Shown: positions 31,402 through 52,600 of the stretch, one piece after another
Layout: each line of letters starts with the position of its first letter
How positions within the stretch are numbered: position 1 is the stretch's first letter
Assembly (NCBI GenBank): GCA_963845755.1
Contig: CAWJTV010000028.1
Coordinates: forward strand, 32,001 to 96,000
DNA: 64,000 bases
Reading direction: 5' to 3'
DNA from: an uncultured Planctomycetota bacterium
GTDB taxonomy: Bacteria > Planctomycetota > Planctomycetia > Isosphaerales > Isosphaeraceae
Program-made: the position numbers and the translations under genes
The notes under the pieces: generated by a model
What the model was told of the DNA's origin: nothing
What the model saw: only the letters and a program-made list of their open reading frames with translations
Databases searched by the model: none

Positions 31402-34400
31402 TCACTGGGGCTTCTCGGTCGCGCGCGGTTTCGCGGCGTTGCGTTTGAGCCGCAGGACCTCGCGAAGCTCGGCGATCGCCTCGTCTCCTTTCCCCAGTGC
31501 TTGCAAGGCCACGCCGAGGTTGCTGTGGGCCGAAGTGTCGGCCGGGTTGAGTTCAATCGCCTTGCGATACTCGACGATGGCTTCCGTCGGGTTCCCCAGG
31601 TACATCAGGGCGTTGCCGAGGTTGGTGTGGGCCATCCCGTCGTAGGGTTTCAGGCGGATTGCCGTGCGAAATTCGGCCTCGGCCGCCTTGTAGTCGTGCT
31701 GGAGATCGCAGAGGAGGGCACCAAGGCCGATGTGTGGGTCGATGAGCTCGGGCTCGAGGCGGATCGCCTCGCGGTACTCGGCAGCCGCCTGATCCGGCTT
31801 TCCCTGCAAGCGTAGGACGTGGCCGAGGAAAGTGTGCGATTCACCGGACCTGGGTTTCAGGCGGATCGCGGCGCGGAATTCCGCTTGGGCGGCCTTGTAG
31901 TCGTGCTTGACATCGCGGAGGAGTACGCCGAGGGTGTTGTGGGTCTCTGGGAAATCCGGCCCGAGTCGGGTTGCCTCGTGGCATTCGGCGATCGCCTCCT
32001 CAGGCTTACCCAGGTCGTGCAATGCGATCCCCAGCGCGGCGTGGGCCATACCGGAGGTGGGTTCCAGGCGGACCGCCTCTTTGGCTTCGGTGTGTGCCTG
32101 CTCGAAATTGCCCCGTTCTCGCAAGACGGACGCCAGGTTGAGGTGGGGATTGATATAGTCGGGTTTGAGGCGGAGTGCCTCGCGGTACGCGGCGATCGCC
32201 TCGTCATTCTGCCCGCGGGCATGGAGGGCCAAGCCGAGCGTGTTGTGGGCGTAGGCGAGTTCCGGCCTGAGGCGGATCGCCTCACGGCATTCGGCGATCG
32301 CTTCGGGCAGATGGCCCTGGTCCATCAGGGCGATGCCGAGCGAGTTGCGGGCGTAGGCAAATTCGGGCCTGAGGCGGATCGCCTCGCGGAGCTCGACGAT
32401 CGCCTCCGCCAACATCCCCTGGTCTTGCAGGATCATGCCGATTCGATGGTGATTGTCGGCGTTATCCGGCCTGAGCCGGACAGCCATCCGGATTTCGGCG
32501 ATCGCCTCGTCCAGCTTCCCCTGGTCCTGGAGGATGATGCCGAGCATTTCGTGGGCTTCGAGGTGATCGGGCCTGCGTTCGATCAGCCGCCGTAGGATTG
32601 CGGCGGCCCTGGTCAGTGCCGCCATCGAGCCCGGGCGGTCGCCCCTCTCCTTGAGCAGGCGACCGTAGCATCCCCAGTCGCGGCCATCGTCCGGGCGGAG
32701 CTGCACGAGGTCCCGGAAGACCGCGATTGCCTCGACCGACTCCCCTCGGGATTCCAGCAGATGGGCCAGGTCGTGCGCAGTGGCGGGCGCGAGGCGCGAG
32801 CGATCGAGTAATAGCGGAGCGCTTCGTCGCCGCGCAACTGCGCCTCCAGGAGACGTGCCAGGTCGTAGTTGAGCCAGACGTCGTCGGGGAATCGGCGCCG
32901 GCCGGCACGAAGGACCTCCTCGGCCGCCTTCGGCTCTTCCACGGCTGCCAGGGCCGTGCCCAGCAGGTTCAGATCGACAGCAGGCCCAGTCTCGCGACTC
33001 ATGGACGCGGCCAGGTCTCGCAGCGCCTTCGCGCGCGACGAGCGGTCGGCCAGGTCGAGTGCCCGGCGCAGGCCGACTCTCCAGGTGTCGCCGTCCGCGG
33101 CATTCGCCGCCTCGGATAGCCGTAGCGCACCGGGCCGATCATGACGAAGCGAGCGTCGCACCGAGGCCCAGTCGTCCAGCGCCGCGACCAGCGCGGAGGC
33201 CAACGTCGCGGGCCGAGCCTTGATCCGCGCCCCCACTTCGGCCGGCGGCAACGCCGCGATGTCAATCCCAGCCTCCTGGAACGCCGCGGAGTAATCCCGA
33301 TTGCTGATGGTGCCGTGAGGATCGTCCGACCTGGCCGAGCGGATGTTAACCAGCTTATCAAGGAGGATGCGGTTGGCCTCGGCGGCGCGGGCGGCCGACT
33401 CGGCTTCCGTCTTCTCCGCAGTGATGGCGGCCAGCAGAGACTCGACCTGGGTGCACAGGGCGGCATCGAGGCCGGGCTCGAGCAGATCGCGGGCCTTCTG
33501 CGCCGCGGCCTGCGCCTGGGTCCAGGTGATGAGGTCCCCCACCTTCGCCGATTTGGCCTGGCCCCTGAGCCCTGACGCCTCTTGCATGGCCGTGCTGATC
33601 TGGGTCGTCCTCGCCGTGATCCGCGACACCCGGTCACGCTCAACCCAGGTCCAGCCGGCGGCGCCGAGCGCACCGGCGATCAGGAGCGAGGCCGCCAGCC
33701 CGACGGTCATCCTCCGGGCCCGCCGCTCGGCCCGAGCTCGCCCGTCCGCGGCCATGGCCGCCGCCCGCGCTTCCGTGGCCCGCGCCTCTTCGGCCGAGCG
33801 GGCCCACTCAGCCGCCGCGGCCGTGGCCTTCGCTTCCTCGGCCCGCGCTTCCTCGGCGGCCCGCGCCAGCTCGGCCGCCCGCAGGCGCTCCTGCACACCG
33901 GCGAAGTACGCCGTCAGCCGCCGCGCCACCTCGCCCGCGTCATGCGGCCGATCGTCGGGATCGACTTCCAGGCATCGCCTCGCCAGGGAGACCAGCTCGG
34001 TGTCGGCGGCGCTGCCGTCGAGTCGCCGCAGGGCGTCGTCCGTCTCGCCGCGTCTGGCTTTGCTCAGGATCGCCTGGCGCGACTGGCCGGTATACGCCGC
34101 CCGGCCGGTGAGGATCTCGCACAGGATCGAGCCCAGCCCGAAGACGTCCGACCGCTCCGAGAGACCCTCGATCTCGCCGCGGGCCTGCTCGGGCGACATG
34201 TAAGCCGGCGTACCCATCACCGAACCGGGGCGCGAGGTTCCGGCATCCGAGCCGCTCCGCACCGTGCGGATGAGGCCGGGTTCGGTCTCCTTGGCGGAAT
34301 CCCGCAGCTCGTCGTCGCCCGCCACGGGCAAGATCTTGGCCAGTCCCCAGTCCATCACCTGGACCTCGCCGAACGATCCCACCATGATGTTCGACGGCTT

Positions 34401-35262
34401 CAGGTCGCGGTGGATCACGCCGCGGGCGTGCGCGTACGACATCGTCTGGCAGACCAGCTCGAAGATCCCAAGGAACCGCGGCCGATCGTGATCGGGAGCC
34501 TCACGGTCGGCCAGCAAAGCGGACAACGTTCGGCCTCGGACCAACTTCATCGTGAAGTAGGGCCGCCCGTCGTCGAACTGACCCAGTTCGTGGACGGGTA
34601 CGATGCCGGGGTGCTGGAGCTGTCCGCCGATTTGCGCCTCCTCGATGAAGCGACGCACCAGGTCGGGGTCGTCACGGTGCTCCTCGAGGAGGACTTTGAC
34701 GGCCAGGTCGCGGCCGAGGTCGGGGTCGCGGCCCTTGAGGACGGCGCCCATGCCGCCGTGGCCGATCTCGCCGAGAAGCTGGTAGCGACCGGCGGAGGTG
34801 GGCATCTCGGCGGAGCAGGGTCGGACCACCGCCGTCGCGTCGTAAGGCTCGGTCTCGCGGAGCAGGACGCGGGGGACGGAGCCGATCGTCCGGGACAGCG
34901 CGGCCAGGATGCTCGCCATCGGGGATGGGTCGAAGGTCGCCGGCCGCTCGCCCGGCGGGCTGCTCGGCGCCCCAGCTTGGTCGGAGAGGGCAGACAACCC
35001 TACCGAAAAGACGGCCGCGATCGCCGTGGCATGGTCGGGGAAGCGACGCAGATACTCGTCCGCGGCCGGTTCTTCCTGATCTCGTCGCCGTAGCTCGAGT
35101 TCGACGCGGAGAAGCTCCGCGAGGAGGGCGGGCCGACAGCGTCGATTCGGCCTCGGCCAGGTAGTCCTCGATACGCGGCCGCGGCCCTCGCTTCCACGCC
35201 CGCTCGAAGCCGTCTGCGATCTCGTTGATCCGGGTCCAGTCCGAATTGGGGATCTCGGCCAT
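31402..35262 (-). CDS. Ser/Thr protein kinase with TM segment and C-terminal TPRs (frameshifts near 35130, 34995, 32785)
   Basis: FERAW..G.RPRIEDYL N-terminus, GHGGMG, AVK, HRDLKPSN, DWG, GTPAYMSPE, TM helix, TPRs. Confidence 0.9.
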
Positions 35263-36584: not shown

Positions 36585-39500
36585 CTAATTCTGCGGAGCG
36601 CGGGCGAGCATTTGATGAAACTCGGGCAATGCCTGAAGGGGCTTCAAGTCCGGGTCCGAAGCCATCTCCGAGGCCGGGAATCCGGTCTTGAGGGCGCGGG
36701 CGAGCAGCTCCAGCGCATGGGGGAGTTGCCTGGCATCGGCGGACTTCTCTGCATAGAGGGCCACGGCGCAGCCGGCATTGTAAAGGCGCCCGGAAGTGGG
36801 ATTGGCGATGAGTCGGTCGACGTCGTCCAGGGCCGCCCGGTCGCCCAGCCGCGCCCGGACCAGGGCGCGGAGCTGGATCGCGTCGATCAGGTGAGGGTCC
36901 GAATCGAGCGCCGCGTTTAGGTGCGCGAGGGCCGATGGGAGGTCCCTTCCCCGGATCAAGAGCGCCATGCCGTAGTGGGCGGCGGCCTGTCGCGGATCCC
37001 CCTCGAGGACGCGCTCGAAGTCGCGCAGCGCTCCCTGTGGATCGGAATGAACCCGGGTCATCCCCCGCGCAACCTGGACCACTGGATCGTCCGGGTTGCG
37101 GGCGAGCAAGGCGGCGAAATCGCGTTCGGCCTCGGCCTGGCGACCGAGACGCGCGAGGGTCTCGCCGCGCGATGCCAGGACGCCCAGGTCTTTCCGGCCG
37201 AGCTCGACGGCCCGGGTCAGGTCGCGCAGAGCTTCCTCGAGCTGATTCAATTCCAGCTCGACGAGGGCCCGGTTGACCATCGCCTCCACGAATCGCGGGT
37301 CCAACTGGAGCGCGCGATCGTAGGCATTGCTGGCATCGTGCAGCCGCCCCGCTCGGGCCAGCGCCAGTCCGCGATTGAAGTGGGCCCAGGCAAAGTCCGG
37401 CCCTCGCGCGGAGCAGACCGCAAAATCGCCGGCTGCCTCGAGGTACCGCCCTTGCTTGTAGTGGCAGTGGCCCAGGATGAACCAGGTCCAGAAGGAGGTC
37501 ACGTCGAGACGGATGGCCTGTCGCAGCGCGTCCTCCGCGGCCGGCGCATCACCGGCGGCCAGCAGCGTGGTGCCGAGCAGGGTCCAGTCGTGGCAGGTCG
37601 AAGGCGCGGTCCGAGCCGCCTGGAGTCGGTCGCGATCGGCCCTGGCGGGCTCGCCGAGTGCATCGTAGTATCGCGATCGCTCGTCGAACAGCGCGGCCGG
37701 AGCCGGTCGGTCGAGGTTTTCCGCCCGATCGAGCCGGGCGATCGCTCGTTCAATCGCCCGCCGCCGATCGGCCTCCGATCCGTGTTTCTTCGCCCGGAGG
37801 ACCTGTGCCCGAGCCTCCAGCATGATGAGCTCGACGGCTTGCTGGCGCACGCGACCTTGCTCGTCTGCGGCCAGGCCGTGGATCCAGCCCGACAGGTGGG
37901 CCGGTCCATCGGCCGGCAAACCGAGGTCGATGAGGCATTCTCGGGCCTTGGCGACTCCGTCGGCGAGGTGCTCATCCGACGCACCCGCGGTATTGAGCAG
38001 GAACTGAGTCTGGGTGAAATCGCGATCGAACCTCTGGAGCTGGAATCGGACCGCGAGATTCCTCACTGCACCCATCGTGAAGACCACGGCCGTGCCCATC
38101 GCGACGAGGAGAACGAGGGAAATCAGCGCGATCGAGGTGGTGCCGCAGAGGCCGGGATGTCGCCTCGCGAACTTGCCCATACGTTCCCGATAACTCGGCT
38201 CGGGACAATGCTTCATGGGCCAGTCCTCGAGGAACCGGCGCAGGTCTTCGGCGAGATGCCGGGCACGCGCATAGCGGCGATCCGGCTGGAACTCCAGGCA
38301 CTTGGCCACCAGAGCATCCAGGCTCCAGGGGATCTGGGGACATCGCGCCCGGAGCGACGGCGCGCGTCGCCGGCTCTCGGTCAGGAAGGCAAGGGTCTCG
38401 AAGACGGTCGCACCCGATGGCGGGGCGGGAAACGGGGGCTCGCCGGCAAGCATCTCGAACAGGATGAGGCCGAGGGCATAAATGTCGGCCCGTTCGTCAA
38501 CCGATTCGGGAGAGGTCGTCCCGCGCGGGTCAAACGCGTCGAGGTGCTCGGGCGCCATGTAGGGCAGGGTGCCGCCGATCAGGGCGCGGCGGATCTCGCC
38601 CTCGGACGGCTCAGGTCGATTCTCCGCCGCCAGGTTGAAATCCAGCAACATCGGGGTGCCGTCGGCCGCCAGCAGGATGTTGGCCGGCTTGAGATCGCGG
38701 TGGAGCAACCCGCGCGAGTGGGCGTGGTCCAGCCCTTCAGCCAGGCGCGCGACGATCCAGACTGCCGCGTGGACGGCACTGGCCCGGCTCAAGAACTGGC
38801 GCGAGGGCTGGTGCTGATCGTCGTTGAGGTTGACCGAGGGTGGAACCGGACTCGCGGTCCCCGTTCCGACCAGCCGGTGAAACAGGGAGCGGAACCGGGA
38901 GACCGACCCGGAACGCTCGAGTCCTTCGGTCATCCGGCTCACCGCGTTTCCGTCCGGAGCGAACAGAAGGCCGTTTGAGATGTCCGATCGCGGTGGAGGC
39001 GTGCCCAGGATCGATCCGGTCCCCCCGCTCTGGGGCACCGGCTGGCTGAGGAGGTCCAGTGCCTCGACCAGGCTGCGACCGTGGTGATCGACCTGGTCGA
39101 GACCACCCGCGGCGTCGAGGACCTGGGCGAGGTTGGCACCGCCGAAATACGGCATGCACAGGATGCGTAGGCCGGTCTCCGGATCATCGCAGACGGAGTG
39201 GACGGGCACGATGTGGGTGTGCTGGAGACGGGCGAGGATCTGGGGTTCCGCGCCTTCCGGGCGCGAGACCTTGATGGCGACCAGCCGTTGCCCCAGGGGG
39301 ATCTCCTCGGCCAGGTAGACGCGCGCAAATGCGCCGCGACCCAGCTCCCGGAGGATCCGGAACCCCGCCAGCTCGTCTCCCGGAAGCGGGAGTCCGCCGA
39401 CGCTGCGCAACCGGCTACTTCCCTGCGCCGACTTCCGGGGTCGCACCGTCCGGGTCTCTTCGAACACCCGACCCTCGTTTGCCTCCGCCCCGCCACCATC

Positions 39501-39779
39501 TTCGCCGAGGCATCCCCCCAGCCCCATCGACGCGCCCGACCGAGATTGTTCCAGAACGAATCCGGAGTGCAACTCCACGCTTTCGTTCAAGGGAAGTTCC
39601 CGCGCGATGCCGGCCGAATGCCCGCTCGTAGGGTCCGTTGGCGGGACACCGAGAACCAGGTCTACCGAGGCGGACGATTTCGACAAGTCGAGATCGTCCG
39701 GGTCCTCGATGTTCCAACCGGCCAGCAAGTCGCGGGTCGAGTCCGGATTCGAGCGTTCCGTTCCACGGGTGTTGGACAT
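36585..39779 (-). CDS. Ser/Thr protein kinase with TM segment and TPRs
   Basis: LGRGAFARV, VAIK, HRDLKPAN, DFN, GTLPYMAPE, DIYALG; TPR C-terminus. Confidence 0.92.
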   Translation of the reverse strand: MSNTRGTERSNPDSTRDLLAGWNIEDPDDLDLSKSSASVDLVLGVPPTDPTSGHSAGIARELPLNESVELHSGFVLEQSRSGASMGLGGCLGEDGGGAEANEGRVFEETRTVRPRKSAQGSSRLRSVGGLPLPGDELAGFRILRELGRGAFARVYLAEEIPLGQRLVAIKVSRPEGAEPQILARLQHTHIVPVHSVCDDPETGLRILCMPYFGGANLAQVLDAAGGLDQVDHHGRSLVEALDLLSQPVPQSGGTGSILGTPPPRSDISNGLLFAPDGNAVSRMTEGLERSGSVSRFRSLFHRLVGTGTASPVPPSVNLNDDQHQPSRQFLSRASAVHAAVWIVARLAEGLDHAHSRGLLHRDLKPANILLAADGTPMLLDFNLAAENRPEPSEGEIRRALIGGTLPYMAPEHLDAFDPRGTTSPESVDERADIYALGLILFEMLAGEPPFPAPPSGATVFETLAFLTESRRRAPSLRARCPQIPWSLDALVAKCLEFQPDRRYARARHLAEDLRRFLEDWPMKHCPEPSYRERMGKFARRHPGLCGTTSIALISLVLLVAMGTAVVFTMGAVRNLAVRFQLQRFDRDFTQTQFLLNTAGASDEHLADGVAKARECLIDLGLPADGPAHLSGWIHGLAADEQGRVRQQAVELIMLEARAQVLRAKKHGSEADRRRAIERAIARLDRAENLDRPAPAALFDERSRYYDALGEPARADRDRLQAARTAPSTCHDWTLLGTTLLAAGDAPAAEDALRQAIRLDVTSFWTWFILGHCHYKQGRYLEAAGDFAVCSARGPDFAWAHFNRGLALARAGRLHDASNAYDRALQLDPRFVEAMVNRALVELELNQLEEALRDLTRAVELGRKDLGVLASRGETLARLGRQAEAERDFAALLARNPDDPVVQVARGMTRVHSDPQGALRDFERVLEGDPRQAAAHYGMALLIRGRDLPSALAHLNAALDSDPHLIDAIQLRALVRARLGDRAALDDVDRLIANPTSGRLYNAGCAVALYAEKSADARQLPHALELLARALKTGFPASEMASDPDLKPLQALPEFHQMLARAPQN

Positions 39780-40192
39780 ATTTCTCGATCGGGAATCGGG
39801 AATGAAACGGTTGCAACGAAACCGGGCGCTTTTGGGGCTCGATCCCAACCACTCCGGCGCCGACGCCGGACAAAAGGTGAGTGGCTAGGGTCGAATCCGG
39901 CTTCAGACGGCCGGTCCCAGGAGTGCCGGCGCTCGAGTGACCGCACAGAAACCACGCGCGGTTTCCAGGCGACAAACTCGAGATGCCTCGGAACTCCTCG
40001 TTCCGTTGTGGAAGGACGTGCCCGTATCTCCCTCTCGCGGAGGAAGACTCTACTTCTCTCTATGTCTCGGAACGAACTCTGTCCAGCAGATCGATGAATG
40101 TCCTGGCGATTCGCAGCGTGAGTGGCGCAGCGTCACTACGCGAATTCAATCGTGGCCTAGAATAGGGATAGGTACTCTCAAGAGGTGGGATC

Positions 40193-41350
40193 ATGCGAGT
40201 CGAGACCAGTCGGACGGCCGAAACGCAAGGCGTTGGCAGCGATTCGGGTACGATCACGGCTCCAAACCGGGGTGAAGAGAGCGAGCACGTCGTGATCGGC
40301 CGTCTCATTCGCCGACTCCGGATTTCGGACCCGCCAGATCGCTTCCAGGAACTGGCGACGACGGTATTGCGCTCGTCCCTGGGCGTGATGGCGGTGGCCT
40401 GGGTCCCCCGAGATCCCCACGAGCCGGTGATTGTCGGCGGATCGGTGGAGGGGCTGGACGCTCCGGCGTATCGGCTGGTGCCCGCGCCGACCGGCCGAGA
40501 GACGATCGTGGTTCACAACGAGATCGCGACCGGCCCATCGCGGTCGATCCACCCCAACATCGTCCGCTATGCCGCCGTCTCGGCCGGCGCGCTCGGTTGC
40601 TTGATCGCGGTCAATCCGCTCGACGACCGGCCGTTCCACCAGGACGAGGCCGAGCGCCTTCAGTATGTCGCCTCGTTGATCGAGACCCAGCTCGCCAACG
40701 CGAAGATTTATGGCGATCTCAAGGAGTTGCTTTTCGGGATCATCCGGGCCCTCACCGCCGCCATCGATGCCAAGGATCCCTACACGTCGGGCCATTCCGA
40801 GCGCGTGGCTCGGATCGCCGTCCGCCTGGCCGAGGAGCTCCGGATGCCGTCGCCGAAGCGGAGCGATCTCTATGTCGCCGGACTCCTCCACGACGTGGGC
40901 AAGATCGGCATCGAGGACGACGTCTTGAAGAAGGGCGGCCCGCTCACCCAGGACGAATTCCGCAAGATCCAATCGCACGTCGAGATCGGGGTGACGATCC
41001 TCAAGGACCTCAAGAAGCTGCACCACATCCTGCCCGGAGTCCGCCACCATCACGAGAGTTACGACGGCAACGGATACCCGGACCGCCTGGCCGGTGATTC
41101 GATCCCGTACGAGGCCCGGATCCTGGCCGTCGCCGATTCCTATGACGCGATGTCCAGCAATCGACCTTATCGCCGACGCTTGAGCCTCATGCAAATCGAC
41201 GAGATCTTCCGCAAGGGGCGTGGGCAGCAATGGGACCCCGCGGTCGTCGACGCCCTCTTCGCCTGCCGGCGCGACCTCGAGGCCATCCGGCAGAAGGGAC
41301 TGGGTGAGAGCCTCATCGGAGCGGTCAACGTCGCTCTCGGTCGAACTTGA
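40193..41350 (+). CDS. HD-GYP domain phosphodiesterase with GAF-like N-terminus
   Basis: DAKDPYTSGHSERV, LHDVGKIG, HHESYDGNGYP, ILAVADSYDAM. Confidence 0.93.
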   Translation: MRVETSRTAETQGVGSDSGTITAPNRGEESEHVVIGRLIRRLRISDPPDRFQELATTVLRSSLGVMAVAWVPRDPHEPVIVGGSVEGLDAPAYRLVPAPTGRETIVVHNEIATGPSRSIHPNIVRYAAVSAGALGCLIAVNPLDDRPFHQDEAERLQYVASLIETQLANAKIYGDLKELLFGIIRALTAAIDAKDPYTSGHSERVARIAVRLAEELRMPSPKRSDLYVAGLLHDVGKIGIEDDVLKKGGPLTQDEFRKIQSHVEIGVTILKDLKKLHHILPGVRHHHESYDGNGYPDRLAGDSIPYEARILAVADSYDAMSSNRPYRRRLSLMQIDEIFRKGRGQQWDPAVVDALFACRRDLEAIRQKGLGESLIGAVNVALGRT

Positions 41351-41376
41351 ATCGAACGGGAGATCGGCCCTGTGAA

Positions 41377-41852
41377 TCACTTCATCGCGCGTATAATCGG
41401 TCGGCTCGAGGAACACCGACTCCACCTGCTTGACCAGTTTCCCGTTCTTGTGGCTTTCCGCGTAGACCTTCTGCCACTCAGGGTCCTTCCCGAACGCTTC
41501 CCACGTCTTCTTGGCGGCCTCGCGACTGGGAAACGCGACCAGGTAGATCAGCTTCGCGCCCTTGCCGTCCTTCTCATCCGTGGGGGTCCAGAACCCGATT
41601 AGCTCCGCGCCGTGCTTCTTGAGCAACTGGCAGGTATGGTCGCGGAATCGCTTGTGCAGGTCGGTCAACTTGCCTTCGTTGAGGTGGTAGGTCCGAAGTT
41701 CGAAGACGCGTCTTGCGCCGGTGGAATCCTGCCCGCCGCAGCACGTGCACGCCTTTTCCTTGGCCGTCGGGGACTTGGCGGGATTTGTCGTCGGCACGAG
41801 CCGGCACCATGCAAGCCACCAGCACTAAGCCCGTCATCATGTGGCGAATCAT
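41377..41852 (-). CDS. Exported NIPSNAP family protein (frameshifts near 41785 and 41388)
   Basis: Signal peptide ..VPARA|DD; VFELRTY, GKL..LHKRFRDHT, LIYL, F.KDPEW, FLEPTDY. Confidence 0.85.
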
Positions 41853-42027
41853 GGGTGCGATGCTCCGTGTGATTGTGTCGGCAGTTTGACCAAGAACCGA
41901 TCTCGTTTCGGTTATAACGCCTCGTGAGATGCTGCTCAAGCGCCGGGTAATTCGTAGGGATAACGGGATGACGTCACTAAACCCATACACTCTGACACGC
42001 GGCTCCCGTGGATTTCGGTTCTCGAAG

Positions 42028-43536
42028 TCATGCAGTTGGCGAGGGCTGGTCGAGTTCGACGACCGAGAGCTGCGAAGATTTACTCTCTCGAATCCCGCAT
42101 CGACTCGTCGTTTGGTTGTCCAGGACGGAGGGGCCGGGAGCGCGGATTGCGTGACTCGCCGAAGATTCTGACCAGCGCCAGCGTTTTATCTTGGAGAGCG
42201 GGCGCGTTTCCATGATCTCAACGAGGTCACCGTAACGCGATAGGTTCCGCTCGTCATGAGCGTAGCAGATCGTCCGCCTCCGGATCATCTTGCCGTACTT
42301 CGGGTGAGGCTCGATTCCCACGACCTCGACCCGGCGCGTCTTGTCCATCTTCGCGCTGGTGACGAGCCCCTGGAGGACGCGACGCGGCTTGCGGCCGCGG
42401 GCGGGCGATTCCCGATTCGCGTCGGGGAAGCCGGGGATTTCGGGAAACGGCGTGAGTGGTTCGTGCTCCGTTGCTTTTTGAGGCGGAAGCCGCGGCGCGA
42501 GGTCGTGGTCCGGCTCGGAGAGGGCCAGCTTGAAGGAGGAGTAGTCGAGGCGGTTGGCGATGGTCCGCAGACGATCGCGGAATTCGGTGGCACGCTCCAG
42601 GTTACCGCACACAATCCGGTCTTTCGCCCTGACGACGCGTGCCATCGACGCCGATTCGATGAATTCGTTCAAGCGGGAATAGAGGATCGAAAACCCTTCC
42701 GTGAAGAGCGGTCCCTCCAGCCTCTCGACTCTCAAGAACTGGGCGAGGGCCTCCGGCCGTCTTGATCTCCGGGCGAGGTTCTCGCCGAAGATGATCGCCG
42801 CGTCCGGGAATTCGGGGAATCGCGCCGCGAACGACTCAGCCCACGGGTTGACGCGGTTGTTGGCACCGAGGCTCAAGAGGCCATAACCGCCGGCCGCGAC
42901 GGCAATCGAGTCGTCAAGGTCCCGGAACAGTGCGAGATTCTCGGCCTGGATCAGCAGTTGATCCGCCTCCTCCAATTGACCCGACTTCAAGTACCGAAAC
43001 GCCATGCCGGCCGAGAGCGACTCGCGAGCGAGAGACGCGAGCGAGGAGGATGAAGACGAGGAGTCGCCTCGGGCGAATGACGGGTCTGCGCGACCGAGGG
43101 GTTCGGAGGTCGCAAGTACCGAGAAATCGACGAGGCATTCCGCCTCGTGTTGGATCTTGCACGTCTTCGAGTACGCCTGGCCACCAGGCGGCCTGCTGGA
43201 GATGACGTAGTAGCCTGGTTGCAGGTCGAGCCGCCTGGAACCGATGACCCAGATCGAGGACGACTGGGCGTGGTCCCGGATCTGGATCGGGAATGGGCAC
43301 TCCTCGGCCCTGATCCAGAGCCGACCGGTCCCGCTCGCCGGTCGCTTTTTCGCGGCGGGGTCACGAGCAGGTTCGGGACCGGGGACATCCGCGGGAATGC
43401 CCAGCTCGTCCTCGATCCAATTGCTCAGGATGTCGGGGCCATCAGCAGGCTCTGGCCCGGCAACCTCCGCGGGCATGTCCGCCTCGTCCTCCTCTTCCTC
43501 CTCCTCTTCCTCCTCGATCCAGCCACTCATGCCCAT
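42028..43536 (-). CDS. Multidomain protein: acidic N-terminus, Ig-like segment, helical domain and a C-terminal ribosomal protein uS17 domain
   Basis: C-terminal RRVLQGLVTSAKMDKTRRVEV..HPKYGKMIRRRTICYAHDERN..GDLVEIMETRPLSKIKRW is S17-like; a probable 1 nt deletion near 42177 would give KRWRLVRI and a stop at 42080. Confidence 0.85.
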   Translation of the reverse strand: MGMSGWIEEEEEEEEEDEADMPAEVAGPEPADGPDILSNWIEDELGIPADVPGPEPARDPAAKKRPASGTGRLWIRAEECPFPIQIRDHAQSSSIWVIGSRRLDLQPGYYVISSRPPGGQAYSKTCKIQHEAECLVDFSVLATSEPLGRADPSFARGDSSSSSSSLASLARESLSAGMAFRYLKSGQLEEADQLLIQAENLALFRDLDDSIAVAAGGYGLLSLGANNRVNPWAESFAARFPEFPDAAIIFGENLARRSRRPEALAQFLRVERLEGPLFTEGFSILYSRLNEFIESASMARVVRAKDRIVCGNLERATEFRDRLRTIANRLDYSSFKLALSEPDHDLAPRLPPQKATEHEPLTPFPEIPGFPDANRESPARGRKPRRVLQGLVTSAKMDKTRRVEVVGIEPHPKYGKMIRRRTICYAHDERNLSRYGDLVEIMETRPLSKIKRWRWSESSASHAIRAPGPSVLDNQTTSRCGIRESKSSQLSVVELDQPSPTA

Positions 43537-43549
43537 TAGCGACCTCGAA

Positions 43550-44890
43550 TCACTCGAAGGGGACGAAGTGCAGGGTTTCGTTGCAATCCTTATCGGCCTC
43601 GATTGGGAGATAGATTTCCGTGTGGGGTGGGTCGGACGACGCCGAGTCAGCCGTGAACTTCAACCGGCATACGCCCGAGGGCGCGGAGGCCACCGGAAGG
43701 TACGGGGCCAGCTCTTTCTTCTGGTCGGCGGTCAGCGAGCTCACCGCGCCGTCGACGTCGAAACTCAGCGTGTAGGGTCCCGGCTGGACCGTGGAATCGT
43801 ATGGGTTGGCGGGGAGTGGGCTATCCAGGACGCTCTTCTTGTGTTTTAGGTTTCTCAACTTCGCATGGGCCACACGGATCACGAGAGTGGGGTCGATTTC
43901 GAGATGGAAGGGGATCTGGGGCGGACGGCTCGTATAGTGAAAGTTCGTCTTGAATAAGCACTTGGAAGTGTCGGCTTGGACGTACTGGACCTTCTTTTTG
44001 TAGTTCGCGATGTCCAGGGTCCTCCGCTGGAGCGGCTCGACGAGGTCCTTAACCGCAACGCTCCACCCATGAATGCCGTGTTCTCGAAGTGCGAACCGTC
44101 CCAGGCATTCCAGCAAGGCACGGCTGAACACCGTCCCAAACTCATCTCCTGTCTCGTAAGCCGGATCTCCATCGCGCGTGCTGTAGATCGTGCATCGATT
44201 GATGGGGTCGCGATACGTCTTCGACTCGTACACAATGATAGGGCGGCCACCCAGGACGTCAGGATTCTTGTACTTGGAGGGGATCGGCTCCGTCTTGCAA
44301 GCGTTGACGAACACAAACTGTTTGCGGGCGTCGGCGTAATCGAGGGCCTCGTGAATATTCCGAAGATCGAGAGAGCCGTCGAGGCACCGTTTCGTTTCGG
44401 CGAAGTCTTCCAGCAACACGCGAGTGATCTGGTGTCCATCGAGGATTCCGTGGCCGCTCACGTAGAGAATCGCAACATCGCGCGAGCGTCGGTTGCAATC
44501 GTCATACCAGGCTAACACGGTGCGCTCCACCTCTGGGAAAGTCGCGCGTTGAATCGTGCCAGTTTTGTCGTCGAAGTCCTCTTTCGCAAGGCCCAGGTTG
44601 ACCATCTCCTTCGGGGTCGGAGACAGGAGCAATCGGATGGAGGCCAGAGGGACAACCGGTTCCTCGCGGCGATCCAAGGACTCCTTGAGATACTCCTTGC
44701 GGAGCCAATCCGCGAATCGATAGGCGCCCGTGGCCGTCGAGGTGAGTTCATCGAGTCCGAAGGTCTCGTTCTTCGGATGATCTGGCGTGTCGCGGAGGTA
44801 GGGATAGTGGCTCGACCCAACGATGAGGGCGTGCGTCGCGCTCCCCTTCGAGCTCCGGTCGGGATTCCTGAACCACACCGCTTCGTTCAT
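43550..44890 (-). CDS. Caspase-like (C14 family) protease
   Basis: HALIVG..Y, ILYVSGHG (catalytic His), FVFVNACK (catalytic Cys), YST..G..A, FSRALL..L. Confidence 0.88.
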   Translation of the reverse strand: MNEAVWFRNPDRSSKGSATHALIVGSSHYPYLRDTPDHPKNETFGLDELTSTATGAYRFADWLRKEYLKESLDRREEPVVPLASIRLLLSPTPKEMVNLGLAKEDFDDKTGTIQRATFPEVERTVLAWYDDCNRRSRDVAILYVSGHGILDGHQITRVLLEDFAETKRCLDGSLDLRNIHEALDYADARKQFVFVNACKTEPIPSKYKNPDVLGGRPIIVYESKTYRDPINRCTIYSTRDGDPAYETGDEFGTVFSRALLECLGRFALREHGIHGWSVAVKDLVEPLQRRTLDIANYKKKVQYVQADTSKCLFKTNFHYTSRPPQIPFHLEIDPTLVIRVAHAKLRNLKHKKSVLDSPLPANPYDSTVQPGPYTLSFDVDGAVSSLTADQKKELAPYLPVASAPSGVCRLKFTADSASSDPPHTEIYLPIEADKDCNETLHFVPFE

Positions 44891-46281
44891 TCTGCTTTCT
44901 CCCGCAGCTCATCGGCGATCTTCTCGTAGAAGAACGACTCCGTGAAGTAGGCGGAGTGTGCCTTCAGGATGTCGTTCCGGCCCGGCATCCGGATGTCCGT
45001 GACCGCCTCGTTACCGAAGACGGGCTGAGCCTGGTATGAGAAGAGGTCGGCCTGGTCGTAGAAGTTGAGCCACTTCTGGACCTTCGCGGGCTTGAGCAGG
45101 AATCCGGCGGTGGGCTCGGCATTCTTGCGATAGACGGCCATCTCCGCGAAGAGCGAGACCTGGGCGCCGGCCATTACCCAGAGTCGGACGGAGATATCGC
45201 TGAGGTCGCTCGAGGTGAGAAGGTCGTAGAAGATCGCACTGCCGAAGGAGTGCGTCACGACCACGAGCGGTTCATTGTTTTTCTCGGCGACCTGCGCGGC
45301 GGCCTGGATGCCCTTGGCGGCGCGGTCGGCGATTGGTCCAAGTTTCTCACCGGTGCTCTGCCCGCGCCGGAGGTACTCGAACACGTCGCCGAAGAAGAGC
45401 ATCGCGCCGGGCCCCACCTCGTTGCGCAGCCAGGGGGCAAGTCGTGGATCGGAGGGGTTCAGGAGCGCCCCCGCTGAGTAGAGCCGGGCGCGGAATGCCC
45501 CCGCGCCGGCCTTCTCGGCAATATATCTCGCAGCCCCTACGGTGGCGTCCTTCAGCGCGTGCAGTCTCTCGGAGGCCTCCTTGATGATCTCCTTTGCTCC
45601 CATCTCGTCGTACGGCTTGCCATCGGCGACCGCTCCGGCGGATTCCTCATACGTGTTTAACTCGTCCACGATGGCCTGATCGATGGCGTCGAGGGCGGCT
45701 TTCCCTGTCTTCGACGTCTTCAACTTTGCGAGGAACTCGGGCCGTTGCGCCACGGCATCGGCGGCGATCAGCAGAAGGGCGCTGACCTGGCCCTTCTGCT
45801 CAGCAGCTTGCCGATCGTCCACCTTCATGTCCTTCGTCTCGGCGACGGTCCGCAAGTCCGGTTCGAAGCGACATCGCTCGGGGGCCACCACGGCCCGGAT
45901 CAAGTCCACGGGGGCTTCTCGGGCCGCCTTGAGTACGACCTGATCGTGTGTCTCCGGTAATGTCTCCGGGTCCGGCTCGGTTCCGTCCTTCGACAGGATC
46001 GAGATCAACTCGAAGAGTGCGGCAGCGGGATCGGTCGTTTCGACGTGGCCCGTTGCTCCCATTGCCTTGGCTTTCTCCAGGCCGAACATCGAGGAGAGAT
46101 CCCAGCGAAAGCGGACACCCAGATCACCCCAATAAAGGTCCTCCAGGACATCGAAGTTTGGATAGCGGGGCTTGGTCACGGGGAGCACGTACTGCTCGAA
46201 CATCTTCCTCCGCGCCTTGCCGCTAGCGAAGTAAACCTCGTCCTTGCGGACGCTCACTCCGTGGATGAATAAGATTGGCAT
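44887..46281 (-). CDS. Alpha/beta-hydrolase (lipase-like) with a large helical insertion
   Basis: ILFIHG, YWGD, VVVTHSFG (nucleophile), WLNFYD..D, AHSAYF; GGAGG RBS; ATGA overlap with the caspase gene. Confidence 0.85.
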   Translation of the reverse strand: MPILFIHGVSVRKDEVYFASGKARRKMFEQYVLPVTKPRYPNFDVLEDLYWGDLGVRFRWDLSSMFGLEKAKAMGATGHVETTDPAAALFELISILSKDGTEPDPETLPETHDQVVLKAAREAPVDLIRAVVAPERCRFEPDLRTVAETKDMKVDDRQAAEQKGQVSALLLIAADAVAQRPEFLAKLKTSKTGKAALDAIDQAIVDELNTYEESAGAVADGKPYDEMGAKEIIKEASERLHALKDATVGAARYIAEKAGAGAFRARLYSAGALLNPSDPRLAPWLRNEVGPGAMLFFGDVFEYLRRGQSTGEKLGPIADRAAKGIQAAAQVAEKNNEPLVVVTHSFGSAIFYDLLTSSDLSDISVRLWVMAGAQVSLFAEMAVYRKNAEPTAGFLLKPAKVQKWLNFYDQADLFSYQAQPVFGNEAVTDIRMPGRNDILKAHSAYFTESFFYEKIADELREKAE

Positions 46282-46625
46282 TGTCGGGCACCTCCAGCGA
46301 ATGCCTCAAGGTGGGCAGGCAAGGCCGGCCTGCACTCAACTGACCTGGCACGCGTCGGCGACATCGCCTGTCCATTTGTATGGGCGTCTGGCGTATTCAC
46401 CGCCGAGCGCCGATCGCCCCACCCTTCATCTGTCAGAATGGACGATAATTGAACCGGATTCAAGAGGCCTCTCCAACTGCGCAGCGAGATCCCGAGCGCA
46501 CCGACGCCTTGAGCATTGCGGAGCGCTTCCGCCATGCAGCGACCGTCGTGGTTCCCTGGTGTCGATTCACCGGCTGGTCCATCCGATGGCCCTCGGACCA
46601 GCCGGGCGAATCACTCCGACCCCGT

Positions 46626-49600
46626 TCAACGGAACCCACCAGCCGCGGCACCATTCCGATTGCCGGCCGGTTGATCGAACCGTTGCTGGAGCCGCTGGAT
46701 CTGCTTCAAGTTATTGGTCGAGTTCTGCATGCGGAGATTGGCATCGAGGGATTCATCCGCTTTGGCTGAAGCATTGGGCATGGTCTGTCCCTGCCCTGGT
46801 TGCTGAGCCGGCACTTGATTCTGACCCTGCAGCGATTGGCCGACGTAGCTCGTGCCGCGGTAGAAGGCGTATTGATTCGACCCTCGGCGCGCGACGGCCG
46901 TGACGACTCCGCGCACTCCTTCGGCCACGAAGATGCCCCGAAGGTCGGTCTCGCCCGAGAGGAACTGGGGATTATCGCTCCCGATGACTTTCACCTGGAC
47001 TTTCGGCAGGAGGTCCTTGGTCGATGCATCGCGGACCGTCACACGAACTCGGCCGGCGCCCGAGTCTTCGAGTACCTCGAGTTCGATCGGTGAGACCAGG
47101 ACGATCCCGGATGCGTAGAGACTCTCGCCGCGAAGCATGACGAGATACGCCGCCGTCCTTGGTCAAGGGAAGGTCGATTGCCTTGGCCTTGTCACCATAG
47201 TCGGCTCCATTGCCGAGGGTCACGGCTTTCTCGACCAGCGGCGTGATGCCCGCGAGGTCAATGCCGGCGATCCCGTTCAAGTTGCGGCGGGTGAGGTAGA
47301 GCTGCATCAGGTTGACGGGATAGGCTTTCACGTCCACCTGGGCGATATTGCGATAATCCAGGGCGATGCCCGGCGAAGGGCCCGGATCGGGGGCTCGATC
47401 GGCGGCGACCGCCGCACCCCTGAGGCTGGCGACAAGGACGCCGCGGACGGGGGTTGCGGGTTCGGTCCGCTCGGCGACCGCGGGACGGACCGCGGACCGG
47501 ACGACGGAGACCTCGGGAAGCTTCAGGTCCTTGCGGGTGTACGAGGTGATGGCGCCCGCCGCGTCGGTGAAGCGGTCGGCAACCTGCCGGTAGTATTCCA
47601 GCGCCTTGGCCGGCTGACGGCGCGCATCGTAGATCTGGCCAAGGATATAGAGGGCCTGCCACTTGTTCGGGCTGGGTTGCTCGGCACCCGCGGCGTCCTT
47701 GTAAGTCGCCCTGGCGATGGTGCCGGCCACCTCGACCGCGCGGTCATAATGGCCGAGATGGAAGTCGCCCAACGCCTCGCTGTACTGGAAGCTGTCGAGG
47801 TACGTGCTCTTGGGATAAACCGTGGCGAACCGGCCGGCCAGGCGGACCACCGACTTGAAGTCTTCCAGCTCGATGAACGCGCCGACCAGGGCCAGGCTGG
47901 CCTCGTCGGCCATGGGGTTCCTGGGCGATTGCGCGAGGAAGACCTGGATCATTCGAATGGATTGCACCAGCAACTCCGAGCGAGTGATCCCGGCGGCGGC
48001 CAGCTCGCGACGGAGATTGGGCTCGGTGATCGCACGTGACGCCGCCTGGGTCAGGACCTGGGAGAGTCCGAAGAAATCGCTCTCGATTGACGCCGTGTTC
48101 GGATAGGACCGCCACAGGTCGATCAGATAGGCCATCCCCTCGAGCGTCTTTCCCCGCTGGCGCAGCAGCTCGCCCACCCGAACATCCTCCAGGTAGCTGG
48201 CCTCGATCAGCCCGCGCCAGACGATCATGGCGCGCTCGAATTCCTTGATGTCCCGATAGGCGGTGCCGATCGCCAGCAACTGGTCGAAGCTGAGGAACAG
48301 CTCGGGGGATTTCTCCTTGACTACCTCGAAATACTGGACGATCTTGCGTGGCTGGCCCGCGCGGATGCTGATCAAGAGGAGCATCCGGGCCGCGTCCTTC
48401 GCGATGTCATCGCGGAGGGTATAGCCACCATAAAGCGACTCGAGGGCATCGCCGGCCTCGGCGAACCGTCCGGCGTCGAAGTGCGCCTTGCCTCGAGCAT
48501 ATAACTCGTCGGGCGTCGGCTTGTAGGGATCGGTGCTCGCTTGGCCGGGAGACCGGACACGCAGCTCGCCGGGCTGGCCGATGTGATAGTGCCCCGGCTC
48601 GTAGGCACTGCGCACCGAGGCGGGCAGGCGCGGTACGTGCCGGGAAGATACCCGTAAAGGTCGTAGGTGGTTGTCCCGGGGTTGACATCGGGCGGGAAGT
48701 AGAGGGTCAGCACGCCGTCGGCCAGCTCGAAGGAGGAAGCCGATGTATTCACGGAACCCTCGATCAAGGTCGTGCCGGCAGGCAAGTGTTCCTGCACCAC
48801 GAGGTAGTCGCGCTCCCACTCGGGAACGTTCCAGGGGATGTTCCGGAATGCGGTGACGGCAATCTGGGCTCTTCCGCCCACACCGACCTGGCTGGCGATG
48901 TTCTCGAATGTGTTGGGATTGACCGCGACCCCGAAGCCGACCGGCAAGACCTTGCCATCGAGCTCCGGCGGCGCTGGATAATAGACGCGGCGATCGATCC
49001 ACGCCACACGGCCGTTGCGATCCTGGTCGGGAGCGAATTCACGAGTAAATCCGGCGAGCGTGACGGCATATCCGAACTCGCCGCGGCCTTCCATCTCGAA
49101 TCGGATGCGGTTGGGCTTTCCGACCTCCAGGTTGGTGCGTGGGACGGCGACGACCTTTTCCTGGGCGGTTCCCAGCACGTCGATCACCGTGAGCGGCTTG
49201 TCATTGACGGTCACAGTCAGGCGATAACGATCCTCGGCGCCCTCGGCGCGGCCGTAATACGTCGCCAGCGCGGTGAGTGCCGGCCCCTTGGCCTTGTGGG
49301 GGAGCCACCCATTCGCGACACGGTGAGCCTGGAGCCAGTCGATGCTCCGGTCCATCTCGTTGGCCTGGGGGCGGACCCGGGCGTAAGCCAGGCTGACGAG
49401 GGCCGTCGTTTCGGCGGTACCACGGACCATCGGAGATCGGCCGGGGGCTTCCCAGTAGATCCGGGGCCTCAGGCCGGGCGCGACGGTTTCCGTCTTGGCA
49501 CGCGGTCCCAGGATGTCCAGCAGCTCGCCGGCCATCGAGGCACGGTCCAGGTTGGCGAAGGTCAACGCCAGGTACGCCAGGGCCGGGCTCGACAGGTTGT

Positions 49601-52600
49601 TCCGGAGCCGGTTCAAGCTGTTGGCCGCCTCGAAGCTGGCCGCGCGTCGCGTGCTCAAGGCGTGCAGCAACGCGGCACGGGTCTCGAGATCGCTGCCGTT
49701 GACCCGGGCGAATTCCTGCTTGAGATAAGTCAGCGCCTGGTCGAGCACCTTGGGATCGGTCAAGAGTCCCAGCGGCTCGGCCGAGGCCAGCGCCAGACGA
49801 CCGCCGCGGAGGACAGCCGGTCGCTCTGTAGCGACTGATCCGGTCGATTCACGATCGAGAGCGGCGGAGGGGCGGCCACCCACGGCCAACCGCCGTCGGG
49901 ATTCTGGGCCGCGATCAATTCGGCGACCAATCCCTGGATCCGTTCGGTCAGGCGCTGGGCTTCCGGTGCTGCAGTGGCGCGGGCATCGTGGAGATAGCGC
50001 AAGACCGAGGTCGCCCCCACCAGGTCCGCGGCACGATCCGCCGTGGTGTTGCTCGGCGGCGGGATGACCCGCGCCGTGGCGTTCAAGCTGTGCTCATCGA
50101 TGTTGATCAGGAGCTGATAGAGATTGGCGTCGCGTCCTAACGCCATCTCGATCAACATTCGGCGAATCGTCGGAGAGAGCGCAATCAGCATGTCGGGATT
50201 TTCATACGTCCGACCCGCCGGCAGTCCGACGAAGACGGTCGTGCTCTCGCGGCCGGTCCCCGATGCCGAGGCGTAAACCGGCATGCCCCAGGGATGGATC
50301 GGGACCTCGACGACCAGCTCATCCTTCAGGTCGCCGACGGCGCCGGTGAGGGTCAATCGAAGCGTATCACCATCGGGCACTTCATACGGTTCGAACAGGA
50401 CCTCGTCGATTCCGTCGCCCTTGAGTTCGAGCATCCTGGGAAACACGTCGTCGCGGCCACCGGCGTAAGTCGCCAGGCGCAGCGCGAGCTGGCCCTTGAC
50501 GCCCGTATGGTGGACTTGCGCGATGAAACGCGGCTTGTCCCCCTGAGTCAGCGCGGTGGGAACCTTCAAGTCAACGAAGAAGTCCTGGCGGACCGTCAGG
50601 GACGATGTGGTTTGCCCGGCCAGGGTGTCGGCGCCGGTGATGCCTCGCGCCGTGATCCGGTACTCGGAGAGTGCATTGGGGGCCTGGAACGTGACCCGCG
50701 CCTTGCCGTCCTTGCCGGTGACAACAGCCGGGTTCCAGTAGGCCGATTCCACGTATCGCTCGCGCGGGGATCGAGGATCGTCCGGTTTCTGGACGGCGAA
50801 GGTGGAGCGACGCCCTTGCGAGCGATCCCGGGAAAGATCATTGAAGTTTCTCGCAAATTGGACCCCAGCGAGTTTCTGCGCTCTGATTGTCACCCAGGCC
50901 TTCTTGATCGACGGCGAGAGGAACGCTCTTTGTCGCATCCTCACCGCTCATGGCCCTGCCGCCGACCCCGCCGCCCATTCCTCCCATCATGCCCATGCGC
51001 GGGTGCAGGCGAATTTCCAGGAACCGGAGCAGCCTCGGCGGGCGTCGGCGCAGGGGCTAGGGGCGCTGGGGCGACCTCATTGAAGAACCCCTGTCTCCCG
51101 CCCGCAGCGAAGTACTGCCGTCGTGCGCCCGCATTGGCCACCCTGGCTTGCTCACGCGCTGATTCCTCGACAACCGCCTGTGACACACCGACTGTGTCCG
51201 GCCGATAAGCGAACGTGTTCGTCGCCTCGGTGGAGAAGGATCCGGTACGGGTCTGGCTGTAGAAGAACGGACCGATCTCCGGGAGCCGGTCGTGGAAGAG
51301 GCGCAGGAGCGACTGGTCGACCATCGCGATCGAGAGCTCGGCCGAGACGGGCTGGCCGAGCTGGTCGGCGGCCGTGATGTCCAGCTCGACCGGCTCGCCC
51401 GGCCTCACGACCGCCCTGGCTGGCTTGACGGTGACGCGGAGGTCGCGCACGACCTCGATGTCGAGCCTCGCTTGATCGCACTCGTTATGCCACATTCGCG
51501 TCGAGGTCAGCGTGAAGTTGGGGAACTGGGCGCCGTCGATCGGCCAGGCGAGCGGGTTATCACCGTCCTTGAGAGTCACGATGCGGTAGGAGAGGATGCG
51601 GTCGGCCTCCCAGGTCAGGAGCGCCGTGCCGGACCGCCCGCGGCTGTGCAGGTTGACGCGCGCCTCCTCACCCACCTTGTAGCTTTGACGGTCGGTCAGG
51701 AGCCGCAGCTTGGTCTCGTCCTCCTTGCCGGAGATGAAGATCAATCGATCGGCGACGATCGGGGTGCCGAACCGGTCGGTCCCCGCGACGCGGAGGATGT
51801 AATGGCCTCCCTCGGAATCGTCGGAGCGGAAGGTCAGAGAGCCGCGGCCGGTCTTGGGGTCGGTCGCAATGGTCTTGCTCGTGACGTCGCGCTCGGTGGT
51901 GCGTCCGTCGACGTTGACCTGCTTGATCAACGTGGCCGAGAGGGACTCGCCGATCGGGCTGCCCTGGGCGTCTGTCGTGACGATCTGGAGCAGGAACGAT
52001 TCGCCGTCGAGGTAAACGCCGCGGGGCGTGCTCACGCTGATCTCGAATCCGCGGATTGCAAGCCGCACGTGGGCCTCGGCGGCCACGTTATCCTGCGGCA
52101 GCCGGGCGGTGAGGTGCAAGGTTTGCTCCTCGGCGAATCCCTCGGTCGAGAATTCGACGTGATACTTACCCACCGCGTCGGTCGTGCCGTGCAGTGTGCG
52201 GCCGTCGGGGAGGCCGATCTCGATCGGCCGAGATGACAGCGGTGCGCCGTATTGATAGCGAGCGACGAGGTCAACCTGGACCGTCTCGCCGCGGTAGACC
52301 ACACTCTGCTTCACGTCGAAGGTCAGGTCGATCGGTTCGAGCTGGTACGACTGGACCTCGAAGCTCCCCGAGAAGACGCTCTTGCCCGGCTGCGATACCG
52401 TGACGCGGTAACTGCCCAGCGGGGCGGCCGTGTCGAGCGGAAGCGTTTCGTGGAACGTCCCGTATTCCGAGAGGGTGATCGACCGGGCCACGATTATCCG
52501 GCCGCGGCTGTCGGCGACCTCGAACCGATAGACGGCCTTCGGCATATTGGCATACTGGCTGTTCCGGATCTCCCGCACGACGCCGCGGACCGAGACTTTC

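Follow-up and report, generated by a model that had tools for sequence, protein, structure and literature searches.

Caspase-like proteases cleave latent effectors, including alpha/beta-hydrolase zymogens, as described for LcCaspase and LcHydrolase, and Arg-Gly cleavage sites have been reported for LcCaspase (Evans et al. 2025 preprint, PMC12642450). In ternary conflict systems, OB-fold S1-like domains and cold-shock RNA-binding domains are found at effector positions (PMC7159879). Here we describe a window of 64,000 nucleotides (nt; the whole stretch analyzed, i.e. positions 32001-96000 of contig C28 in G000, the 14.3-Mb genome of an uncultured planctomycete in 49 contigs), in which an open reading frame (ORF) of 502 amino acids (aa) carries a domain of the ribosomal protein uS17 at the C-terminal end of a protein of the Y4kD_C family, next to the gene of a caspase-like protease. 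The sequences compared here indicate that this S17 fusion is genuine, conserved, and rare, and it is very probably a real fusion within a caspase system. The best explanation overall is that S17 provides a caspase conflict system with a module for output or targeting, directed at rRNA or the ribosome; we put this reading a little short of probable.

The uS17 protein is a component of the 30S subunit that binds the 5' domain of the 16S rRNA and, to our knowledge, hardly any ribosomal protein has been taken up as a domain by another protein. An earlier note on this DNA had recognized the hallmarks of S17 in the C-terminal part of the ORF, and the profile searches agree: Pfam Ribosomal_S17 (PF00366) matches aa 390-454 (window 42175-42369; E = 7.8e-24) with 84 bits against a cut-off of 25.9, and is the sole family of the local Pfam library found in the ORF, while the precomputed Pfam annotation lists PF27295 and PF00366. 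The bacterial uS17 models of NCBIfam cover aa 385-454, with NF004123 at 86.6 bits (cut-off 74) and TIGR03635 also at 86.6 bits, slightly below its cut-off of 88.7. Specifically, aa 387-456 form five strands in the full-length AlphaFold2 model (387-397, 400-410, 417-427, 438-444, and 452-456), with a predicted local distance difference test (pLDDT) of 85-89, the last strand being shortened by a frameshift.

The other observations of that note on the architecture also stand. A total of 384 nonribosomal residues precede the S17 domain in the same frame, and the linker that had been called Pro-rich has 10 Pro in 42 residues (aa 345-386), with an Arg380-Gly381 pair immediately ahead of the S17 domain. 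The domain was said to lack a separate start, and in-frame ATG, GTG, and TTG codons are indeed absent between codon 309 (GTG) and codon 397, which is the ATG of the KMDKT motif and already falls within the first S17 strand. The flanking genes, which had been noted not to be rpmC or rplN, encode the caspase (43550-44890) and a NIPSNAP protein (41370-41797). No stop codon was found ahead of the S17 part in the assembled sequence, and composition and GC content at third codon positions (GC3) are unbroken across the solenoid-S17 junction; in the frame of the ORF, GC3 is 0.72-0.90 from 43520 to about 42200 and 0.54-0.58 past 42170. Small shares of the stretch occur in 4 runs of one soil-metagenome study, and no RNA data set was listed for it. 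Compared over 41900-43700, these runs yield 5 short contigs, which cover 42470-43143 and 43521-43633, and none lies over the S17 part or the frameshift site.

The same architecture is found in P0003, a 500-aa protein from a Logan assembly, which is 39% identical to the window protein in an alignment of 248 residues that starts in the solenoid, crosses the linker, and reaches into S17. Another aligned segment lies in the N-terminal beta-sandwich (P0003 aa 42-83), and the C-terminus of P0003 is intact (...WRLVRI...). Because this independent protein has homology across the junction, we consider the fusion to be conserved and not an assembly chimera. A profile search also recovered P0005, a 260-aa prediction on a 4986-bp contig from ENA, which is a near-identical strain variant of the window gene. 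Word-indexed protein searches with the window protein, and with the alignment of the window protein and P0003, found P0003 as the sole other protein of this architecture; a metagenome scan with the alignment of the N-terminal module (N-module) yielded zero relatives, and one with P0003 yielded 37 loci, all matching its S17 part only. P0004 (JGI metagenome, 376 aa) was considered as a further fusion and rejected on account of its different architecture, in which S17 is N-terminal (68% identical to the window domain) and the C-terminal ~270 residues are an extension without a family.

The genome has a separate, canonical rpsQ on contig C33 (36423-36758), between rpmC (L29) and rplN (L14) and within a complete S10/spc operon that runs from S10 through SecY. 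This gene is a stronger S17 match than the fused copy, which is accordingly not the only rpsQ of the genome, and the proposal of a captured paralogue agrees with what we find, i.e. an S17 copy on a nonribosomal protein, outside any ribosomal-protein operon, with the canonical rpsQ elsewhere. Across G000 and 60 relatives, 59 of the 61 genomes have an S17 match, and two copies are present only in G000. Between the fused domain and the resident rpsQ, identity is 77% in DNA (176 nt compared) and 62% at the protein level, and because the DNA identity is only 77%, the fused S17 is not a recent duplicate of the resident gene. The canonical S17 sequences nearest to the fused domain are 66-78% identical to it, and those that are named belong to Isosphaeraceae, Planctomycetaceae, or Planctomycetota. 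The fused domain is of planctomycete type, captured from a planctomycete rpsQ.

In a FastTree phylogeny of fused and native S17 (153 sequences, 80 columns), the resident S17 groups with the relatives of its family, and the two fused domains (window and P0003) fall together in a clade of nine tips with a support of 0.88. The canonical set comprises the 120 best of 3257 matches to the window domain, 29 relatives, and the native copy, and is biased towards query-like sequences because it was chosen as best matches to that domain. No terminal branches in the tree are longer than those of the fused domains, at 0.59 (window) and 0.90 (P0003) against a median of 0.074, and the joint placement of the two domains may reflect long-branch attraction. 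At the 45 columns with a conservation of 90% or more among 150 canonical sequences, the window S17 keeps the majority residue at 43 and the P0003 S17 at 40, compared with a mean of 0.72 deviating columns (maximum 7) among canonical S17; both fused copies are off-consensus in the hairpin near column 32. The fused S17 thus has a fast-evolving periphery and a core that is under constraint.

The carrier, i.e. the N-terminal ~340 residues of the fused ORF, matches a Y4kD_C module (PF27295, Pfam 38.1), a family that is uncharacterised. The atlas clusters nearest to it have PF27295 in 96-99% of their members (scores 0.89-0.91), and a search with the profile built from the two N-modules recovers 271 proteins (E ≤ 1e-3), mostly ~400 aa long and stand-alone. 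In a Pfam library that has no PF27295 model, the carrier part was without a family in 148 of 148 scanned relatives. The carrier model, built from a 40-sequence alignment, has a mean pLDDT of 74.6. Foldseek places its beta-sandwich among small beta-sandwich domains (6hif_Y and a rhamnogalacturonan lyase domain; E ~1e-3 to 2e-2), and the best matches of the solenoid are TPR proteins (MamA, consensus TPR, and the TPR of FKBP52) at E = 2e-3 to 2e-2, with none at or below 1e-3. The window member shares with the Y4kD_C family the beta-sandwich and helical core, the motifs, and a site directly after the caspase gene. It differs in that the middle region is missing (alignment columns ~300-440 are empty), in its acidic, disordered N-terminus, and in its S17 domain, which is otherwise found only in P0003 and P0005. 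In this N-terminus (aa 1-60, 43357-43536), for which disorder is predicted, 11 Glu follow one another and the motif WIE.E...P.PA..P occurs as two near-repeats; the family members lack a counterpart of it. The true start of the ORF may be further downstream.

The C-terminal domains of the relatives differ among loci. In 4 of 14 loci they are Endonuclease_NS, Trypsin_2, Trypsin_2 with PLDc_2, and DUF4062, and another Pfam domain is present in 8 of 148 scanned family members, with DUF5995, GH15, phycobilisome-like, Trypsin_2 (twice), Endonuclease_NS, and ABC permease as the C-terminal ones. Some of these fusions resemble housekeeping proteins: P0078 has an N-terminal Cpn60/GroEL-like part, P0045 is phycobilisome-like, P0150 has an ABC permease, and P0031 has a GH15 domain; DUF5995 is carried by P0027. 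All five are single predictions, and P0150 is possibly a read-through of two genes. The C-terminal position of Y4kD_C proteins is variable, with S17 occupying the slot that toxin-type domains have in relatives.

In its genomic setting, the family is invariably paired with a caspase. A caspase homologue lies directly upstream of the Y4kD_C gene, on the same strand, in the window and in all 14 other loci, which were retrieved by a search with a 13-sequence alignment and represent six phyla (Acidobacteriota, Chloroflexota, Actinomycetota, Rokubacteria, and those of a Novipirellula and a Mesorhizobium). All-vs-all clustering of the ORFs of these 15 loci leaves the caspase and the Y4kD_C protein as the only conserved components. 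The CATRA ternary system comprises a caspase, a CATRA protein, and the small protein CATASP, and no small third gene is conserved across these loci. All 14 aligned homologues keep the catalytic His147 and Cys198 of the window caspase, and the NCBIfam model caspase_w_EACC1 also matches the protein (E = 3e-8), under its cut-off. PADLOC returned weak matches only (model PDLC02987, E ~1e-3).

The first gene of the operon encodes a putative hydrolase, and its stop overlaps the start of the caspase gene by 4 nt. The hydrolase had no Pfam match at E ≤ 0.01 and no match at E ≤ 1 in a sequence search of PDB; there is a weak Ser_hydrolase match (E = 0.18, aa 327-376), and an atlas feature search relates it at 0.96 to clusters of alpha/beta fold hydrolases, with LCAT, PGAP1, and Lipase_3 lower. 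A homologue precedes the caspase in a Rhodococcus locus (L051; phmmer E = 8.5e-40), where Hydrolase_4 is matched at E = 4.7e-4, and a hydrolase-like gene next to the caspase is thus common to 1 of the 14 other loci. The hydrolase is a candidate caspase-activated effector. No terminator-like site was found on the minus strand at 41700-42300.

Elsewhere the third gene varies, and includes genes for a trypsin-endonuclease I, an astacin, an LCAT-like hydrolase, a metallo-beta-lactamase, a CHAT protein, and a subtilase. For example, in three loci (L056:2283-4430, L060:2554-4500, and L057:2385-4798) of metagenome-assembled genomes of Acidobacteria and Thermoanaerobaculia, the gene directly upstream of the caspase-Y4kD pair is hemocyanin/tyrosinase-like, with Pfam support in two of them and a homologous ORF in the third. 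This arrangement recalls, as an analogy, protease-activated prophenoloxidase. An Acidobacteriota locus (L053:843-4454) has additional Y4kD-related ORFs ahead of its caspase gene, one of which carries a fused Trypsin_2 and Endonuclease I, and a CHAT-CHASE2 gene follows downstream.

Structure prediction supports binding of the caspase to the carrier module. The predicted complex of the caspase and aa 60-502 of the fusion scores 0.71, compared with 0.01 for the best of 3 controls. Of 157 solved complexes, 116 attain this mark, as do 2 of 215 mismatched pairs; these counts are rough because our own alignments were used. The runs have at least 59% of contacts in common and a partner pLDDT of at least 64. 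On the fusion side, the predicted interface involves residues 87-127 of the beta-sandwich and 184-333 of the solenoid, and on the caspase side residues 150-154 and 202, beside His147/Cys198, together with the C-terminal domain. The S17 and linker residues fall outside the confident interface, and this absence carries no evidence on those residues.

Comparison with a congener (G001) shows how the locus differs between related genomes. In tblastn searches, the flanks of the block occur there in the same order (A2M-like pieces, i.e. alpha-2-macroglobulin, then the 676-aa TPR gene, NIPSNAP, HD-GYP, and kinase), with the TPR and NIPSNAP genes ~600 bp apart and no match for the hydrolase, the caspase, or the fusion between them. 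As the syntenic site has the flanks without the three genes, the 5.2-kb block was gained by the G000 lineage. No flanking repeats of the block were found. The N-module was not found in the 60 relatives, where two matches below 18 bits are too weak to count, and in a sample of 401 genomes of the phylum a strong N-module match is present in G000 alone. Another 11 matches in that sample were rejected as family members, with 26-38 bits over the N-terminal part only and many with stops. The three-gene block is a horizontally acquired operon, and it looks like a cell-suicide or immunity system. Beside the block are genes for Ser/Thr protein kinases with TPR regions (32613-34997 and 36585-39848, minus strand) and for an HD-GYP-type HD_5 protein (40193-41350, plus strand), and both the kinases and the HD-GYP-type protein are conserved in the congener.

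The S17 domain ends in a frameshift. The earlier note held that one added base restores the canonical KRWRLVRI end, and one missing base at ~42174/42175 does account for its loss; [LIV]VRI stands at the corresponding point in P0003 and in canonical S17 sequences. As assembled, the tail past KRWR is unrelated to S17 and disordered in the model (pLDDT 31-40), and, should the deletion be an assembly error, the protein probably ends with the alternative-frame tail instead. A break of the same type affects rplC, an essential single-copy gene (contig C33:41192-41958; locus L104:1280-2046) that is split across two frames, with L3_bact positions 1-130 in one and 129-202 in another; a one-base deletion lies at profile position 129/130, in a C run ahead of TG. 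Because rplC carries this same-type deletion, an assembly indel is favored at the S17 end, and from the sequence it seems somewhat more likely than a real mutation. The deletion must in any case be very recent or artificial, as the out-of-frame continuation still spells LVRI. A programmed frameshift at KRWR was considered and rejected, given that no supporting feature was seen and that rplC has the same type of break.

Similar fragmentation is seen elsewhere. In the congener (L065/L066, contig C2:1740000-1779999), homologues of the kinase, HD-GYP, and A2M genes align piecewise in different frames, and this assembly seems rich in indels. A giant TPR and alpha-2-macroglobulin-like gene at 46972-54909 of the window (minus strand) is present as four ORFs (1322, 394, 505, and 676 aa) that overlap or abut, while the open frame over the A2M piece in relatives is 705, 1299, or 530+292 aa long. 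It is probably fragmented by frameshifts, either in the G000 assembly or in the relatives. With one-base deletions in coding C runs of this assembly, frameshifts that are not backed by reads cannot be safely taken as biology.

Features of the fused gene, its operon, and the surrounding block (window coordinates)
Feature	Position	Strand	Basis
Fused ORF, 502 aa: Y4kD_C-family module, linker, uS17 domain, out-of-frame tail	42028-43536	-	ORF list, Pfam, precomputed annotation
Beta-sandwich domain	43126-43326 (aa 71-137)	-	AlphaFold2, seven strands, pLDDT 92-97
TPR-like alpha-solenoid, Y4kD_C core with family motifs	42556-43050 (aa 163-327)	-	AlphaFold2, eight helices, mostly pLDDT 87-97
Pro-rich linker, predicted disordered	42382-42504 (aa 345-385)	-	AlphaFold2 pLDDT 43-58
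uS17 OB-fold domain, captured	42169-42384 (aa 385-456)	-	Pfam, NCBIfam, AlphaFold2
Apparent one-base deletion, C run ahead of TGG, past KRWR codons	42172-42177	-	Frame comparison
Alternative-frame tail, LVRI... to TAA (42080-42082)	42080-42174	-	Frame one base back
Caspase-like cysteine protease (Peptidase_C14), 446 aa, C-terminal beta-rich domain	43550-44890	-	PF00656 E 3.5e-8
Putative alpha/beta-fold serine hydrolase, 464 aa, THSFG motif, first operon gene	44887-46281	-	Weak profile and atlas matches
~5.2-kb block (hydrolase, caspase, Y4kD-S17)	41798-46971		Absent at syntenic site of congener G001

Given this context, the caspase-Y4kD pair could form the core of a proteolysis-gated conflict system, acting in immunity or cell suicide, to which the S17 domain would add an RNA- or ribosome-directed module. 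The S17 domain may tether the complex to the 5' domain of 16S rRNA or to nascent 30S particles; alternatively, cleavage of the linker would free the domain, which would then rival the native protein and interfere with assembly of the 30S subunit. The linker is conceivably a protease site, with an Arg380-Gly381 pair that does no more than resemble the Arg-Gly sites of LcCaspase, and the neighboring alpha/beta hydrolase would be a second, protease-activated effector. An output or targeting role is favored because S17 sits in the position of toxin-type domains in relatives. That the domain itself works in output or targeting, aimed at the ribosome or rRNA, is nonetheless a tentative claim, slightly on the doubtful side.

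Several points weigh against it. With a separate hydrolase effector in the operon, S17 need not act as one, and a near-normal S17 domain is not obviously toxic. The fusion is found in two lineages only (the window with P0005, and P0003), and the long S17 branches of the tree would fit relaxed constraint as well as a new function. In the window copy, as assembled, only the first half of the last S17 strand is present; P0005 has the same out-of-frame tail and further frame changes within the linker and S17, which could be decay rather than sequencing noise. Finally, we infer the defence role of the caspase-Y4kD pair from its context.

The computed data do not discriminate among the decoy, rRNA-binding sensor, and ribosome-targeting module proposed in the earlier note. 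As an integrated bait, the S17 domain would mimic the native protein and trap an invader factor that binds or modifies S17, whereupon the Y4kD-caspase complex would switch on the protease and the hydrolase. The solenoid and the beta-sandwich are binding modules and not enzymes, the operon already has a separate effector candidate in the hydrolase, and the S17 surface residues that a mimic needs are strongly kept (43 of 45), all of which suits a bait, as do the housekeeping-derived look of the terminal domains in P0078, P0045, P0150, and P0031 and the DnaK-like domains fused to EACC1-protease modules, which have been interpreted as sensors (PMC12642450). However, the same position in relatives holds nucleases, phospholipase D-type (PLD), and trypsin domains, which points to an output slot, the S17 domain lies outside the predicted caspase interface, and the housekeeping-type fusions are single metagenomic predictions, one of which (P0150) is possibly a read-through. 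No invader factor is known to us to target S17, though no search was aimed at one. A bait is the main rival to the preferred reading and, on balance, somewhat unlikely in our view. The broader idea that caspase-Y4kD systems use copies of essential host proteins (uS17, GroEL-like, or phycobilisome-like) as baits is unlikely in our view; were a bait at work, an invader attacking the ribosome, the chaperonin, or the antenna would trip a caspase-driven suicide response, and the system would parallel, in prokaryotes, the integrated decoys of plant nucleotide-binding leucine-rich repeat (NLR) proteins.

It is also conceivable that the fusion once worked, or arose by accident, and is now being lost, in which case the frameshift and the P0005 frame changes are real. 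The identical out-of-frame tail in two assemblies, the several P0005 frame changes in linker and S17, the very long branches, and the rarity of the architecture would all agree with such a relic. Set against these are the 43 of 45 highly conserved S17 columns that are intact, a GC3 that stays high through the S17 domain, an out-of-frame continuation that is still the canonical LVRI, and an intact P0003; in addition, the assembly has a matching one-base deletion in the essential rplC, and the frame breaks in conserved genes of the congener assembly suggest sequencing noise. We consider decay quite improbable. Highly improbable is a chimeric join or misassembly that put an rpsQ fragment behind an unrelated gene: the assembly is metagenome-style with known indel errors, and none of the soil-metagenome contigs reaches the S17 part, yet P0005 and the distant P0003 have this junction too, the S17 DNA is merely 77% identical to the resident rpsQ, and composition and GC3 are continuous over the junction.

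Returning to an S17 module directed at the ribosome or rRNA as the preferred reading, a conserved S17 on a caspase partner suggests a proteolysis-gated conflict system with a link to the ribosome, which the system would either target or monitor. The Y4kD_C family also gains a testable role, as the binding partner of the caspase with an exchangeable C-terminal module. Literature searches on S17 with caspases, conflict systems, paralogs, fusions, or defence found no paper on such a fusion, with the limit that supplements may list architectures, and searches on y4kD found nothing relevant. Pepco was considered as the family of the carrier and rejected, as it is a 117-aa protein.

The window copy has the same OB-fold and hallmark motifs as canonical uS17 (rpsQ; PF00366, TIGR03635). 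Canonical uS17 is a stand-alone protein encoded in the S10/spc operon; by contrast, the window copy has no start of its own, is C-terminal on a 384-residue protein, and evolves much faster, in a genome with a separate canonical copy. The likeness to plant NLR integrated decoys is an analogy only: in both, a copy of a host-protein domain is embedded in an immune protein, which is putative here, whereas the window system has no nucleoside triphosphatase and its S17 position is shared with enzymatic toxin domains. The described protease-effector modules (PMC12642450 and PMC8195603) are like the window in that a caspase-like protease, with His and Cys intact here, lies by an alpha/beta-fold hydrolase, a putative one here, and a repeat-containing partner, in that toxin-type domains vary in one position, and in their patchy horizontal spread; the accessible parts of these descriptions make no mention of an S17 domain. 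As such, the window case is an S17 variant of known caspase-linked conflict modules, on a carrier family that is uncharacterised.

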